Assembly: GCA_036170915.1 (NCBI GenBank)
Contig: JAVHQC010000006.1
Span: 32,001 to 96,000, forward strand
Source of the DNA: Cyanobacteria bacterium auto_48_18
GTDB lineage: Bacteria; Cyanobacteriota; Vampirovibrionia; Obscuribacterales; Obscuribacteraceae
Length of the DNA: 64,000 nt
Direction: 5' to 3'
Part shown: piece after piece, positions 3,565 to 9,656 of the stretch
How positions within the stretch are numbered: the first letter of the stretch is position 1
Layout: each line of letters begins with the position of its first letter
Made by a program: the position numbers and the translations under genes
Notes under the pieces: generated by a model
The model's database searches: none
Seen by the model: only the letters and a program-made list of their open reading frames with translations
What the model was told of the DNA's origin: nothing

Positions 3565-4704
3565 ATGCGCATCAGTCGATTGCAGGTTTATGGGTACAGA
3601 TCAATTAAAAGTATTGATTTGAAACTGGATGCCCTCAACGTTATCGCTGGAGCCAACGGTACAGGCAAAAGCAATCTCTATAGATCGCTATACATTCTCT
3701 GGGCCGCGGCCAGTGGCCAACTGGCCCAGGTTCTAGCTCAAGAAGGTGGTATGACTTCTGCCCTCTGGGCAGGCAAGCGCAGTAAACTGGATGACGCAGT
3801 TTTTCGCATACAAGTCAAATTGGATGATCTCACTTATAAATTTGAGTGTGGCTGCGTGCCCGCATCTGCTCGCGGCTTTATGAGTTATCCCGGATGGTTT
3901 AGCAATGATCCGGATATTAAAAAGGAAGAAGTAACCACTGATTTTCGTGCTCGCAAAATTCATTTGCTCAAGCGCAAGCGCGGGGCAATATCAGCACGCA
4001 ATATGGACGGCAGGCCAATAGAGTACCCTCTTACCGGCAGCGGCTGCGAATCTGTTTTGTCTTGTCTGCGTGAACCACACTTGTTTCCTGACCTTTCAGT
4101 GTTGCGACAGGAAATTCTAGGCTGGCGATTTTATCATCATTTTCGCACCGACTTAGCTTCGCCTCTGCGTCGTGAACAAATTCCTGTATTCACCCCGGTT
4201 TTAAGTCATGATGGTCACGACTTGGCCTCAGCTCTGGCTAGTATTATGGCTGCTGAAGGCGAAGTCAATTTGAAAAAGCATTTAAATAATGCCTTTCCAG
4301 GCGCAGAACTAAGTATTGACATGGAACCACGCACGGTGGCATTCACTTTACAAATGCCGGGCTTAAACAGACCATTTAATGCTCGTGAGCTCTCTGACGG
4401 AACGTTGCAATATTTGTGTTTGCTTGCAGCCCTTCTTACAGAGCGGCCGCCTAACTTGCTCGTCTTAAACGAACCAGAAACCAGTATGCATCCTGATCTT
4501 TACGGGCCCCTGGCTGAGCTCCTCGTAGATGCGAGTAAACGCTGTCAAATAGTTATTACTACTCACGCCAGGGAGCTGGCCGCTACCATTGAAAAATTGA
4601 GCGGCAACAAAACAATTCATTTGGAGAAAGACGATGGTGCCACCAGTATTGTTGGTGCGCGCCCATTCGATTTTTATGATGATGACGAAGATGATGAAGA
4701 CTAG
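3565..4704 (+). CDS. ABC/SMC-like ATPase (COG4637 / AAA_21-like)
   Basis: Walker A GANGTGKS, signature LSDGT, Walker B variant VLNEPE, H-loop TTH; acidic tail. Confidence 0.9.
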   Translation: MRISRLQVYGYRSIKSIDLKLDALNVIAGANGTGKSNLYRSLYILWAAASGQLAQVLAQEGGMTSALWAGKRSKLDDAVFRIQVKLDDLTYKFECGCVPASARGFMSYPGWFSNDPDIKKEEVTTDFRARKIHLLKRKRGAISARNMDGRPIEYPLTGSGCESVLSCLREPHLFPDLSVLRQEILGWRFYHHFRTDLASPLRREQIPVFTPVLSHDGHDLASALASIMAAEGEVNLKKHLNNAFPGAELSIDMEPRTVAFTLQMPGLNRPFNARELSDGTLQYLCLLAALLTERPPNLLVLNEPETSMHPDLYGPLAELLVDASKRCQIVITTHARELAATIEKLSGNKTIHLEKDDGATSIVGARPFDFYDDDEDDED

Positions 4705-4715
4705 AAGGCAATCTT

Positions 4716-5858
4716 GTGGCAATCACTGATTTCAAAATTCAAGGCTACCGATCGATTAAAGATCTCTGGCTCAGGCTGTTGCCCATTAACGTCATAGTGG
4801 GACAAAACGGGACAGGCAAGAGCAATTTGTACAGGGCTATGTATCTACTTGCCTGCGCCGCCAGAGGAGAATTTGCCGAAGCGTTGGCTGAAGAAGGTGG
4901 TATTGCATCGGCGCTATGGGCGGGCGATTGGAGTAAAAACGATGAGATTTGCCTTTCTCTTTCGATGCGTACAGATAGGTACGAATACAATCTGCAGTGC
5001 GGCCCTGCGGGCAAAGTTGTCAGACCTGAATATTTCCGAAAGGATCCGGTGATTAAGGCGGAAGACGTTTTTAAGATTGAAAACGGACGAAAGAAGCGTT
5101 TGCTTTCTCGTCGCTTGAGAGTTGTCTCTGCTCGAAACGCCGCTGGTAAAGAAGTAGAGTACAGCACCAAAATTGGTGACAATGAATCCGTCCTTTCCGC
5201 TCTCAAAGATCCAATCAATTTTCCTGAATTATTTGGTTTGCGGGAAGAAATACTGGGCTGGCGCTTCTATCATGGTTTTCGCAAGGATGTAAACTCACCT
5301 TTGCGACTACCGCAAATTGGCGTGATGACTGCGGCCTTGAGCCATGATGGTCACGATTTGGCCGCTGTGCTTGCCAGTATCATAGAAGCTGGAGATCGAG
5401 ACTGCTTGGAAGCAAGCATCGACGAGGCTTTTCCAGGTGCAAGCCTCGGCATTGCACAGACTAAAGCTGGTTTGGCGCTATCCTTTTCACAGCCCGGTTT
5501 GCTCAGACCACTCAATGGAACCGAACTTTCAGACGGCACATTGCAATACCTCTGCCTTCTTGCTGCCTTGCTCAGTCTGTCGGCACCATCAGTGATTGTA
5601 TTGAACGAACCAGAAACAAGTTTGCATCCAAATCTAATTGAGCCCCTGGCCAAGCTGATTACTAAATGCGCTATGGATACACAAATCTGGATCACAACTC
5701 ATTCGCGGGAGCTGGCGGATCGCATCATGGACTTAAGTGGATATGAATCGTTTGAACTAACGAAATCGGCTGGTCAAACAAAGCTCGTAGGCGTGGGCCT
5801 GGGGGGCTTTCGTGAAGATTCTGAAGATTCTGAAGACGACAAAGGTGTAGCGCAGTGA
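4716..5858 (+). CDS. ABC/SMC-like ATPase (COG4637 / AAA_21-like), tandem paralog
   Basis: GQNGTGKS, LSDGTLQYLCLLAALL identical to upstream copy, VLNEPE, TTHS; GTG start. Confidence 0.9.
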   Translation: MAITDFKIQGYRSIKDLWLRLLPINVIVGQNGTGKSNLYRAMYLLACAARGEFAEALAEEGGIASALWAGDWSKNDEICLSLSMRTDRYEYNLQCGPAGKVVRPEYFRKDPVIKAEDVFKIENGRKKRLLSRRLRVVSARNAAGKEVEYSTKIGDNESVLSALKDPINFPELFGLREEILGWRFYHGFRKDVNSPLRLPQIGVMTAALSHDGHDLAAVLASIIEAGDRDCLEASIDEAFPGASLGIAQTKAGLALSFSQPGLLRPLNGTELSDGTLQYLCLLAALLSLSAPSVIVLNEPETSLHPNLIEPLAKLITKCAMDTQIWITTHSRELADRIMDLSGYESFELTKSAGQTKLVGVGLGGFREDSEDSEDDKGVAQ

Positions 5859-7327
5859 ATTCACTTAATCGGCGAGAGTTCCTGGCGCTGGCCGGAGTTA
5901 CCCTAAGCAGTTTCCCCTGGCACGAAGCGCTGGCGAAGCGGCATGGAATACTAGTAAATGATGTGCATTCACAACTGAATGAGACTCAAGTGAGCGAGAT
6001 AGCTTATCCGCGAACAGTTGTCGACTTGCGTGGCATCGTTGACAGAACACGCAAAGCAAAGAAAGCGTTGTCTGTATGCGGCTCGCGTCACGCAGCTGGT
6101 GGTCAGCAATTTCTTAGTGACAGCGTACTTGTTGACACAACCAAGTTTGCACGGGTGCTCAACTTTGATAGTGACCTCGGTTTAATCACTGTTGAAAGCG
6201 GCATTCGCTGGGTGGAGTTGCAGGCCTGGATGGAGAGCCATCAATCGGATAGCGTTAAACTATGGGCTTTCAATCAAAAGCAAACCGGGCTTAGTGAACT
6301 GACCATTGGTGGCACTATTGGTGCCAATGCACATGGCCAGGGTCTTGCACTCAAGCCCTTCATCGGCGACATTGAGTCACTGCGTCTGCTCAACGCGGAA
6401 GGCGAGATTCTCAATTGCAGCAGAAATGAAAATGCCAGATTGTTCAGTCTGGTTGTGGGAGGTTATGGCCTTTTTGGGATAGTGCTTGATGTGACACTAA
6501 AGCTGGTGCCGCGGCAAAAAGTGCGCAGACTGGTAAGCATTATTCCAGTGAGTGAAATTGGCACCGCCCTGGATGCCGCGATCAAGCACGGATTTCGCTA
6601 TGGCCACTGCCAGCTCAATATAGATGAAACTTCGCCTGATTATCTAGCCAACGGCATATTTTGCAGCTATGAACCTGTAGATAATTCTACTGCCCTTGCC
6701 AGTACCGCTTATATTGCTGGTGAAAAATGGGTAGACATGCTGGAGCTGGCGCATAAAGACAAAGCCCAGGCTTTTAGTAATTATTCTAAGTTTTTTGCCA
6801 GCACCAATGGTTTTGTTAACTGGGCAGATGTCTGGCAGAATAGTTTCTACGCCGCCAATTATCATCAGATTGTCGATCAAAGATTGCTTGCTCCGGCTGC
6901 GAGCGAAGTGCTGAGTGAATTCTATGTGCCCATTGACCAGCTGCCGGTCTTCATTGCCAAAGCGCGTCAATATTTTATAAGTTTTGACATCAATATTATT
7001 TTCAGCACCGTCAGATTTATTCAAAAAGATGATGAAAGTTTTTTGCCTTGGGCCAGGAAAAATTATGCATGTGTGATTTTCAATTTGCATACCGTGCATT
7101 CGCAGATGCCCATAAAGAAAACCATGGATGCGCTTTCTTTTCTTACTGATTGCGCCATTGCCGCCTCGGGCAGCTTTTACCTGACATACCAGCACGTGGC
7201 AAACAAACAGCAAATTCTGTCCTGTTACCCCAGATTCGAAGAATTTTTAGCGGCCAAGCTAGAATTTGATTCTGCTGCGGTATTTCAAAGCGACTGGTAC
7301 CGTTGGCATTTGCAATTGTTTGCTTGA
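5855..7327 (+). CDS. Tat-exported FAD-binding oxidoreductase (VAO/PCMH type, sugar-lactone oxidase-like)
   Basis: NRREFL twin-arginine signal; GSRHAAGGQ, TIGGTIGANAHG, VGGYGLFGIV. Confidence 0.85.
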   Translation: MNSLNRREFLALAGVTLSSFPWHEALAKRHGILVNDVHSQLNETQVSEIAYPRTVVDLRGIVDRTRKAKKALSVCGSRHAAGGQQFLSDSVLVDTTKFARVLNFDSDLGLITVESGIRWVELQAWMESHQSDSVKLWAFNQKQTGLSELTIGGTIGANAHGQGLALKPFIGDIESLRLLNAEGEILNCSRNENARLFSLVVGGYGLFGIVLDVTLKLVPRQKVRRLVSIIPVSEIGTALDAAIKHGFRYGHCQLNIDETSPDYLANGIFCSYEPVDNSTALASTAYIAGEKWVDMLELAHKDKAQAFSNYSKFFASTNGFVNWADVWQNSFYAANYHQIVDQRLLAPAASEVLSEFYVPIDQLPVFIAKARQYFISFDINIIFSTVRFIQKDDESFLPWARKNYACVIFNLHTVHSQMPIKKTMDALSFLTDCAIAASGSFYLTYQHVANKQQILSCYPRFEEFLAAKLEFDSAAVFQSDWYRWHLQLFA

Positions 7328-7504
7328 CTCTTTCAAATACTAATTTTCTAGCGCGAATCCATTAGATTTGTTTCGAATTAATAGCATTCGCTCACACTTA
7401 TATACAGTGCTGGGAACAGTGAATAATCAATAGAAAATTCTTCTCCAGAACTTTGAACTTTTATTGGTCTTCCGACGTTTACATAAGAAACGGAGGAAAT
7501 ACTA

Positions 7505-8551
7505 ATGTTGGAACGTTTCGAAAATGACGGAGAAATTGAGAAAATTTGGCAGACAGTTTTGTCTATCGCACCAACCGATTCCGATGCTTTAGACATATTC
7601 TGTCAACACTGGAGCCAGAATGACCTTCTAAGATGTGGTTACTGTGGTAGTACTGATTTAAACCGTGCTCCAGGCGACCGTAGGTGTAAGTGTGACAACT
7701 GCGGTAAAAAAGTATGGGTCACTTCCGAGAAGCTTCTTGAACGTGCAGAACGCTTCCAGGCGTACCTGGCAGCAGCTCTAATTCGTGAAGCCGGCCTCTT
7801 TATCAGTGGAGCTGCATTTGCTCGGCTTACAGAAGTGCAGACTTCTACCGCTTACAACATATTGAGAAAGTTCAATATTGCGCTGGCTAATCAGTTACCA
7901 CAAGACGCAGAGGAAATTTCTGGAAGACTAATGAAACTGATAATCGCCAAGCGAACCTGCGAGACTCCCGCCCGGTTGCATCCATTCGCAGAGCAAGAAC
8001 TGATTGACGAGGAGATTTTTCAAAGTCGCTCTGAGCAAGATTGGGTCGCATCAGATTGTGCTCAGAACAAATCTGCTGAAGAGGAGCAGGATGATTTTGC
8101 ACGCAATACAGAATTGGTTCTGGGAGTGCTGTCGGCGGAAGTGGGAATGACGGCAGATGACGTTCAGTTGAAAACAGGTATTGCGATTGGAGTAGTCACT
8201 GGAAGTCTCTTTGTGCTTGAACTGAATGGCAAAGCTCGCAGGGTCCCAGGAGGTAAGTATTTCCTTTGTGTGGTATCGGCAGCAGATCAGTTTCAGGCCA
8301 GAGAAAATTCGCAGCTTGCAGAAAGTGTGAGGCTCGGGGCGATAAAATATCTGTCAGTCATTGGTGAGTACCTTCACCGTGTTGGTCGCAAAGGCCTTCA
8401 GCATCACCTTGCGGCAGTTTGGTGTGCTCTCGATCGGGCAACATGGGGGCCAGGCTCTCTGATCAGCCTGAGTGGAATGCATCCGCCAGTGCCTTATCGT
8501 CAGATGGTTGAGTATGTGTCGCCACCATACTTGAAAATTGTGATCTGTTAA
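7505..8551 (+). CDS. IS1595-transposase-derived DNA-binding protein (Zn ribbon + HTH + DprA-like winged helix; no recognisable DDE core)
   Basis: CGYC..CDNC ribbon, ISGAAFARLTEVQTSTAYNILRK HTH, SLFVLELNGKARRVPGGKY wing, YLHRVGRKGLQHHLA C-terminal motif; GGAGG RBS. Confidence 0.7.
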   Translation: MLERFENDGEIEKIWQTVLSIAPTDSDALDIFCQHWSQNDLLRCGYCGSTDLNRAPGDRRCKCDNCGKKVWVTSEKLLERAERFQAYLAAALIREAGLFISGAAFARLTEVQTSTAYNILRKFNIALANQLPQDAEEISGRLMKLIIAKRTCETPARLHPFAEQELIDEEIFQSRSEQDWVASDCAQNKSAEEEQDDFARNTELVLGVLSAEVGMTADDVQLKTGIAIGVVTGSLFVLELNGKARRVPGGKYFLCVVSAADQFQARENSQLAESVRLGAIKYLSVIGEYLHRVGRKGLQHHLAAVWCALDRATWGPGSLISLSGMHPPVPYRQMVEYVSPPYLKIVIC

Positions 8552-8695: not shown

Positions 8696-8786
8696 ATAAA
8701 AAGCTCGGACGATATCGTCTGAAGTTTTTTGTAAGTTTGAACGATATCGGTTAAACGTTGGGATCTTTGACCGATATCGGCGAAAG
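8696..8786. repeat. Three phased imperfect palindromes centred on CGATATCG
   Basis: Cores at 8710, 8742 and 8772; flanks such as GTTTGA..TTAAAC and CTTT..AAAG. Confidence 0.8.
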
Positions 8787-8867
8787 TTTTCCGAGGTAAC
8801 ACCGCCTGCCAGCCAACCCTGCAAACGCCCCGCCCACAGCCACCCGCAACCAGAAGCATCTAACCAA

Positions 8868-9656
8868 CTAAGCACTTTTGATCATTCGAACGATTTCACG
8901 CACGTGATCTAAAAACTGACTGTCAGATGAGAGTTTAGCAATTGCATTTTGCCCTTCGCGTCTTAATGTCTCGTGTTCTGCTCGATTGTCTTGCGCCAAC
9001 GTGGTGTACTTTTGTGCCAGGTGTTCCAGGTCAATTTTTAAGCTACCTATAGTGCGATTCATATTTGATGGCAAGCTGTCCGGATTTTTTGGATCCACGG
9101 CTGTCGACAACTGCTCCAGTAAAAGCTCGAGTTTTTCTACTTTCTCGCGCAGCACCAGCACGTCTTCTCGCGGATATTTGAAAGTGTGCCTAATATCTCT
9201 TAGTCTTTGCCAGAGGTATTCATAAGCTCGAACTGATGGCCTCAGAATCGTTAGCAAAGCTGCAGCTGCTGCACCAAAATACCCCACTGGAGTAATGTGC
9301 GCCGCTGACAAATAGAACAGTGCTGCCGCAGAAACCAGATGCAGTCCGATGGCAATACTTAGCGATATGGCTTTAATTTTCCTGACATATTTTGCTTTTA
9401 TTTCGTCGACTGCAATGCCTAACTTGAGGCTGTTATTGGCGTCGTCTTGAACTGCCAGTGCCTCAAAGTAGACGTTCCATGGAGCGATAGTAATGGCGAG
9501 TAACCACCAGGCCGTTGCGATGGCGATAATCCAGTCGACCATTGAACCGCTAGGTATATTCAGCCATTTGAGCAAGCCAAATAGAAGTGCGGTCATAACC
9601 ATCATCATTAAGGTGGCATAGATAAAAGAGCCTAGTCCGCGTCCCAAAATAAACAC
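8868..9656 (-). CDS. Hypothetical membrane protein (4 TM) with C-terminal coiled coil
   Basis: Hydrophobic segments and heptad-rich tail. Confidence 0.75.
   Translation of the reverse strand: MFILGRGLGSFIYATLMMMVMTALLFGLLKWLNIPSGSMVDWIIAIATAWWLLAITIAPWNVYFEALAVQDDANNSLKLGIAVDEIKAKYVRKIKAISLSIAIGLHLVSAAALFYLSAAHITPVGYFGAAAAALLTILRPSVRAYEYLWQRLRDIRHTFKYPREDVLVLREKVEKLELLLEQLSTAVDPKNPDSLPSNMNRTIGSLKIDLEHLAQKYTTLAQDNRAEHETLRREGQNAIAKLSSDSQFLDHVREIVRMIKSA

Follow-up and report, generated by a model that had tools for sequence, protein, structure and literature searches.

Domesticated IS1595-derived proteins with a DprA-type winged helix, and their association with long palindromes and a promoter motif of competence genes, in one family of Melainabacteria

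The window is a stretch of 64,000 nucleotides from Cyanobacteria bacterium auto_48_18, whose genome is called G000 below. An open reading frame at 7505-8551 of the window, on the + strand, encodes a protein of 348 amino acids, P0001, and holds no internal stop. A GGAGG ribosome-binding site (7492-7496, + strand) was found in the sequence 8 nt before the ORF, and similar sites precede most of the paralogs; the ORF is intact and its ribosome-binding site strong, as previously noted. Farther upstream is a promoter-like site (7453-7479, + strand) made up of TTGAAC (7453-7458), 17 nt and CGTT (7476-7479). The same motif occurs at the paralogs, comM and comEC, and we take it to be of the ECF type. 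Downstream, at 8698-8790, are three palindromes, whose CGATATCG cores (8710, 8742 and 8772) are invariant in the orthologous loci of two other genomes, G006 and G009, and whose flanks diverge. On either side of the gene are an FAD-linked oxidase gene (5855-7327) and a membrane protein gene (8868-9656), both of which adjoin the ortholog in G006 and are absent at the G009 locus, where the wider neighbourhood is kept. Two tandem AAA_21/AAA_15 ATPase genes (3565-5858) resemble HEC-01A of PADLOC (E 7.5e-50 and 3.7e-46) and are kept in G006 and G009; no gene for a nuclease partner is evident next to them. A PADLOC search with three proteins of the P0001 family returned no match.

Profile alignment to IS1595, dN/dS and an AlphaFold2 model have been used to assign P0001 as a domesticated IS1595-derived protein. 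The N-terminal shell (aa 13-131; 7541-7897, + strand), delimited by hhalign, consists of a C4 zinc ribbon (C44, C47, C63, C66) and a helix-turn-helix, with the residues P23-T24..A28, W36, C44xxC47-G-S, C63xxC66, T73 and T115-A-Y-N-I-L-R-K. Among 141 family sequences C44, C47 and C63 are invariant and C66 is kept in at least 90%. The shell is followed by a family-specific motif at aa 149-163 (7949-7993, + strand; consensus KRSRETPAxxHPxAE), which sits where the DDE core would be expected to start and was recognized by conservation in the 141 rows (R150 99%, S151 95%, T154 98%, H159 94%, P160 99%, E163 98%). An acidic, fast-evolving linker occupies aa 164-195 (7994-8089, + strand); residues 160-200 contain 13 D/E against 3 K/R, in agreement with the acidic linker reported earlier, and identity to the G009 ortholog is 27% over aa 166-195 compared with 67-85% in the domains. 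A DprA-type winged helix (WH) at aa 196-256 (8090-8272, + strand), which includes L238-E239-L240, was identified by Pfam PF17782, structure comparison and identity to DprA. The last part is the IS1595 C-terminal helical tail (aa 276-345; 8330-8539, + strand), assigned from profile alignment and conservation, with an H-x-[VI]S-R-K-x-L-Q-x-Y-L motif that is degenerate in P0001 (Y289-L-H-R-V-G-R-K-G-L-Q-H-H-L-A against the 141-sequence consensus FHGISRKYLQxYLA). The AlphaFold2 model (pLDDT 93.2, pTM 0.80) is mainly helical, with the WH suspended between two linkers and with short strands only, as also in the DDE-core region. Foldseek comparison with solved structures gave no match at E<=0.001 for P0001 or for the model of a WH-less paralog (pLDDT 91.7; best VIA Z 4.0), which does not imply a new fold, and the family profile matched no PDB sequence below E 0.2.

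The N-terminal Zn_Tnp_IS1595 zinc finger is given as a defining feature of IS1595 transposases in the available text of PMC8101967. P0001 alone matched no IS1595 Pfam model at E<=1, and 8 of 16 family members matched Zn_ribbon_IS1595 weakly (best E 3.4e-4). A profile of 141 family sequences aligned by hhalign to 13 true IS1595 transposases gave a probability of 99.79 and E 1.8e-28; residues 13-131 and about 276-336 aligned well and the catalytic core did not. The preliminary description had read an IS1595 pattern from the N-terminal residues and had held that its case would fall if no IS1595 profile matched; the residues are present and the family profile does match. Its C-terminal IS1595 motif was borne out for the family and only in degenerate form for P0001. 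The missing DDE/RNase H core that it described was also recovered: DDE_Tnp_IS1595 (PF12762) was matched at E<=1 by none of 16 family members and by nothing anywhere in the G000 genome, and the invariant D135 and D217 of true IS1595 transposases have no counterpart in the unaligned core. The family thus resembles the IS1595-family DDE transposases (PF12760 and PF12762; NCBIfam NF033547) in its zinc ribbon, helix-turn-helix and C-terminal tail, which align at 99.8%, and the tail resembles that of IS1595 elements of the same lineage (L076, L266); it differs in having no DDE core, being non-mobile, carrying a fused WH and using a host promoter. Judged from these alignments, the family is derived from an IS1595 transposase and has lost the DDE core; its members presumably bind DNA and lack any catalysis. 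No prominent terminal inverted repeats were found at the P0001 flanks (score 14-15/20 against 13-17/20 in a cross-paralog control), by a test that also failed to raise a true IS (15/20) above background.

The G000 genome contains 10 paralogs, all open, with 28-49% identity. Of 60 other genomes from the same Melainabacteria family, 47 contain this protein family (E<=1e-30), with 1-17 matches each; an earlier count of 24/24 positive family genomes was discarded because its weak matches were DprA or true IS1595. Several of the 13 genomes without the family keep comM and comEC with the promoter motif, and the family is therefore dispensable for the transformation genes. A sample of 200 other genomes from the phylum, in which that Melainabacteria family is not represented, yielded no member. 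A protein library held 615 clusters at 50% identity with E<=1e-30, and the nearest clusters in the ESM Atlas, placed in Candidatus Melainabacteria, were hypothetical proteins that carry a DprA WH. Many of the loci are related by descent, and the family, promoter and palindrome counts given here therefore overstate independence.

Each of the nine full-length paralogs of G000 is paired with a G006 sister in the tree. P0001 and its G006 ortholog share 91% identity with a dN/dS of 0.091, and against G009 the value was 0.078, at a dS close to saturation; every pair for which dN/dS was defined fell at 0.08-0.22. By domain, dN/dS against G006 was 0.10 for the N-terminal part, 0.11 for the WH and 0.024 for the C-terminal tail, which is under the strongest constraint. 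The checks suggested earlier (paralog count, synteny and dN/dS) agree on a family that is not mobile and is inherited vertically under purifying selection. Shorter paralogs that lack the WH also occur (five of nine in G003); they are intact and under purifying selection, which indicates that the WH is not needed for every role. It is extremely improbable that the gene is an active or recently dead IS1595 element. Ten copies per genome and the occurrence of true IS1595 elements in the lineage would fit such an element, but the DDE core is missing, the paralogs are only 28-49% identical, the position is conserved and dN/dS is 0.09. The true element in G003 (C1:1653047-1654050, L266) and two more copies of it are 99-100% identical, have imperfect terminal repeats starting CCTG and are apparently active.

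Pfam gave DprA_WH as the sole match on P0001 (204-250; 27.3 bits against a cut-off of 22.9), which confirms the DprA-like winged helix proposed from the letters, and the domain was matched by 15 of 16 family members. The DNA_processg_A (PF02481) core is absent from P0001; its only match over the cut-off in the genome is the separate dprA gene. Comparison of the P0001 WH with DprA 3maj by VIA-align gave Z 9.0 and rmsd 1.7 over 58 residues, tied with other WH matches. The 140 family WHs have a mean identity of 0.36-0.41 to nine DprA WHs of the host family, 0.19-0.31 to 21 DprA WHs of other families and 0.34 among themselves; that of P0001, with 36% identity to its own DprA, is among the more drifted. 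The higher identity to host-family DprA favours capture of the WH from the lineage's own dprA, which is the origin favoured by the sequences; in the WH tree the grouping with host DprA was weak (50/72) and was neither forced nor rejected (p-AU 0.46). The best explanation of the architecture is a single origin in the common ancestor of one Melainabacteria family, where a copy of the DprA WH took the place of the DDE core.

The WH is like the DprA C-terminal WH (PF17782) in being the same domain, nearest to that of host-lineage DprA, and in retaining the LEL segment, which is its best-kept part (L238 95%, E239 87%, L240 72%). It is unlike DprA in lacking the PF02481 core and in being joined to a transposase shell, which would direct it to specific sites and not to any incoming single-stranded DNA. 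ComM is a binding partner of the DprA WH, which brings it to transformation D-loops, and L350, E353 and L354 of Vibrio cholerae DprA lie at the ComM interface, such interfaces being species-specific, according to the available text of PMC12012524; the same text cites the WH of Helicobacter pylori DprA as not binding DNA, and its Discussion describes ComM as bidirectional and able to collapse D-loops in vitro. YraN has been described as the nuclease partner of ComM (PMC13663708, available text), and both comM and yraN carry the promoter motif in G000, where ComM is encoded at C29:101255-102805. E239 and L240 of the family may correspond to V. cholerae E353 and L354, as judged from the Glu-Leu pair and not from an alignment to the V. 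cholerae protein. In view of the ComM binding of the DprA WH and the lack of DNA binding by its H. pylori counterpart, the family WH probably serves to dock another protein and is not the DNA-binding part, which refines the preliminary description. A second refinement is that the gene belongs to a larger unit, together with the ECF-type promoter motif that competence genes also have and with cognate palindromes, which that description did not mention. As to the exapted, non-catalytic DNA-binding protein that it had proposed, the IS1595 origin, the loss of the DDE core, the WH and the domestication stand, and DNA binding and the absence of catalysis keep the rank of predictions.

TTGAAC-N17-CGTT precedes all 10 paralogs of G000 (one with AGTT), about 25-35 nt before the start. 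TTGAAC[TC]..CGT was found in this genome 59 times at spacer 17 compared with 8-21 times at six other spacers, and a matrix trained on the 10 paralog sites only found 47 sites scoring at least 17 at spacer 17 compared with 7-18 at six others. Across genera, 67 family rows out of 70 showed a relaxed form of the motif; the 70 include one duplicate, and one of the misses falls at the end of a contig. Two further loci were also positive. Among relatives TGAAC-N16/17-CGT was found before comM in 29 of 29 loci (23 at spacer 17 and 6 at 16), before comEC in 29 of 30, before dprA in 0 of 30 and before an ECF sigma gene in 20 of 30, that is in 20/20 close orthologs and 0/10 weaker matches; wrong-spacer controls gave 0-1 per gene set. 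The genes preceded by the motif in G000 include comEC, comM, comF, yraN, radC, recJ, priA, xseA and dnaE, as well as Spy/CpxP-like genes, an efflux protein, DUF1800 and other envelope genes, five DUF6088 genes and an ECF sigma with a zinc-finger anti-sigma. For recA and radA the motif lies about 350 and 215 nt upstream, and these were counted as doubtful. The motif is common to the family and to comEC, comM, comF, yraN, radC and recJ, and it presumably works as a promoter. Since it also precedes envelope genes, dnaE, xseA and priA, and not dprA, the regulon may be a wider stress response. At G022:C535 (L253), comEC and a family gene adjoin and converge, with less than 1 kb between them.

ECF genes regulate themselves, and an operon of G000 (C23:45662-47900; L104:8721-10910) with an ECF sigma, a zinc-finger anti-sigma and a Spy-like gene has the motif upstream; its sigma gene spans C23:45720-46352. 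It is a candidate for the master regulator of a joint competence and envelope regulon, with dprA outside; as two genomes have the motif at comM and comEC, yet a best ECF match without it, the sigma assignment is that of a candidate only. As far as the available accounts of the ComX/SigX and SigH competence regulons go, the likeness lies in one promoter motif before comEC, comF, comM, radC, recJ and yraN; the differences are that the candidate sigma here is an ECF factor with a zinc-finger anti-sigma and a Spy-like gene, that dprA is outside and that envelope genes are inside. The shared promoter outlines a likely competence/stress regulon in Melainabacteria, and our literature search found no paper on one.

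The family genes are also linked to long palindromes. From 66 family loci with the promoter, 3 were dropped for short flanks; a near-perfect palindrome lay within 300 nt in 35 of the remaining 63, and 28 failed the strict test. Such palindromes were found at 0 of 70 comM, comEC and ECF loci and in 23 of 1490 background windows. They are mostly upstream, with the centre CCGATATCGG and with arms that vary yet remain complementary. All five WH-less paralogs of G003 have tandem arrays directly upstream, with 12-23 copies of 35-37-nt units (C1:853297-853732, 4280311-4280979, 4379531-4380169, 1195839-1196673 and 1367094-1367634). In draft genomes many WH-less genes lie at contig ends, as would be expected if arrays break assemblies. 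That the shell binds palindromes as operators or chromosomal anchors, with the WH as a second DNA-binding domain or a relic without a ComM link, would be in line with the many palindromes located about 30-170 nt upstream of the gene's own promoter, with the structural neighbours of the WH, which are mostly DNA-binding regulators, and with the arrays beside WH-less paralogs. We consider such a regulator or chromosome organizer unlikely, given that in the P0001 subclade the palindromes are downstream, between convergent genes, that the donor-type WH of H. pylori DprA does not bind DNA (cited in the available text of PMC12012524) and that LEL is the best-kept part of the WH.

In G000 the palindrome types are often specific to a paralog and often paired, 33-94 nt apart. 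Nine of the 16 copies of CGTTAACG are on the 97-kb contig of its gene and 7 of the 10 copies of TGATATCA on the contig of its gene; CGTGCACG (22 copies) and CTCCGGAG (13 copies) are dispersed. In G003, which is a single contig, 22 sites are not adjacent to a family gene, and 12 of these are no more than 60 kb away from one (p 3e-5, for a threshold chosen post hoc), and the sites near a family gene carry the arm variant of that gene. One 16-nt pattern had 100 sites in 21 family-positive genomes compared with 2 in 12 family-negative ones, and controls gave 4 and 2; the genomes were hand-picked, and 6 of the 21 had no site. An occupied/empty comparison was obtained for one site, which G000 has and both G006 and G009 lack; it showed no clean target duplication. 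Three further sites in the comparison are shared by descent. An uptake-sequence-like role of the palindrome core was rejected, CGATATCG being observed 136 times in the genome against 135 expected. An origin of the palindromes as remnants of IS ends was also rejected, the ends of the active IS1595 in G003 containing no CGATATCG. A 12-nt likeness between a subterminal repeat of a Ralstonia IS1595 and one palindrome type was seen once. Side-by-side palindromes resembling BIMEs occur in G000 at C16:185370-185474, C22:216853-216909 and C32:80446-80475, with the same A/T arms and different centres (TCCGGA, TTTAAA, TGCGCA).

Domesticated transposases are, to our knowledge, rare in bacteria, RAYTs being the main example, and the host-transposase fusions we know of are mainly from eukaryotes. 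The present family is like RAYTs with their REP, REPIN and BIME sequences (PMC5581495, available text) in being a set of domesticated, vertically inherited transposase genes with cognate extragenic palindromes that recur elsewhere and are often paired. RAYTs are catalytic HUH/Y1 enzymes, usually single-copy and often with more than 100 REPs. The family differs in its DDE-derived shell without a core, in its approximately 10 paralogs and in its competence-gene promoter; no Pfam match to an HUH/Y1 transposase was obtained in 16 members. Unlike REPs, the palindromes are near-perfect, have a fixed centre and number roughly 5-25 copies per type. The family appears to work most like a RAYT-REPIN system, but without an HUH enzyme. 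It is also conceivable that the family is a RAYT-like enzyme in which KRSRETPxxHPxxE and SRKxLQ together make up a new active site for cutting or copying the palindromes, which would explain their local spread. The near-invariant polar residues across the family (R150, S151, T154, H159, E163, S294, R295, K296, Q299), the recurrence of palindromes in pairs and the site found only in G000 would accord with such an enzyme. We regard it as quite improbable, since DDE and HUH motifs are both absent, P0001 itself is off-consensus at two of those residues (T151, G294), and the occupied/empty and shared sites described above point the other way.

The reading that we tentatively place first is that the family proteins bind DNA at specific sites without catalysis and, during competence, bring ComM to their own palindromes. 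The unit would consist of the promoter, the shell-WH protein and the cognate palindrome. An ECF sigma would turn the family on together with genes for DNA uptake and recombination, and the transposase shell would keep its end-recognition role and bind the palindrome of its paralog, mostly near its gene, either in duplex form or as a hairpin formed by the incoming single strand. The clustering of the palindromes would fit the tendency of transposases to act mostly close to the gene that encodes them. The WH would dock the ComM helicase at the palindrome, as the DprA WH does at D-loops, and such site-specific loading might bias transformation-type recombination in the marked neighbourhood, helping the gene and its palindromes to persist or spread locally. 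Counting against this reading are the persistence of WH-less paralogs, the retention of competence genes in genomes that lack the family, the extent of the regulon beyond competence, the drifted WH of P0001, the weak grouping in the WH tree, and the family loci and family-positive genomes in which the palindromes tested were not found. A more far-reaching version is possible but doubtful. In it, adaptors derived from a transposase would each recognize a palindrome of their own and take over the DprA-ComM docking interface to load the helicase at chosen places on the chromosome, so that transformation becomes site-directed; the uptake machinery of the host would maintain and spread gene and palindromes without transposase catalysis.

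The WH might alternatively act as a decoy or brake that competes with DprA for ComM, holding the helicase at palindromes or collapsing D-loops and thereby ending competence or keeping transformation from deleting the locus. In its favour are the number of paralogs (up to 17 in a genome), which might suffice to titrate ComM, the absence of the promoter motif from dprA, the bidirectional action of ComM and its ability to collapse D-loops in vitro (PMC12012524, available text), and titles and abstracts in the literature which report that transformation is often inhibited by mobile elements. Long vertical retention under purifying selection speaks against a decoy, paralog-specific sites suggest targeting over bulk titration, and WH-less paralogs are incapable of competing for ComM, all of which make it improbable.

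The family is a real and undescribed variant of the domesticated-transposase system; a literature search found no description of it, most subscription journals being outside that search. It is a DDE-derived domestication with hundreds of members and a captured host domain whose partner is known, and the protein-palindrome pairs, which differ between paralogs, are natural pairs. The new findings are the palindrome types of the individual paralogs and how these cluster locally, the tandem arrays beside WH-less members, and the link between palindrome sites and the presence or absence of the family. If the WH does dock ComM, as in the adaptor reading, the family would show how transformation recombination can be aimed at sequences and would offer a testable route for the spread of extragenic palindromes.

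A second domesticated family of the same design is possibly represented by DUF6088/AbiEi-like paralogs that follow the same promoter motif in G000 (C15:59386, C22:31219, C22:109968, C25:106002 and C35:228977). Upstream of two of these five are long palindromes particular to them, one of which is of a type that occurs in several dispersed copies. HTH_3 antitoxin-like genes (G000:C10:192000-196200) and a ParE gene (C10:230171) also follow the motif.
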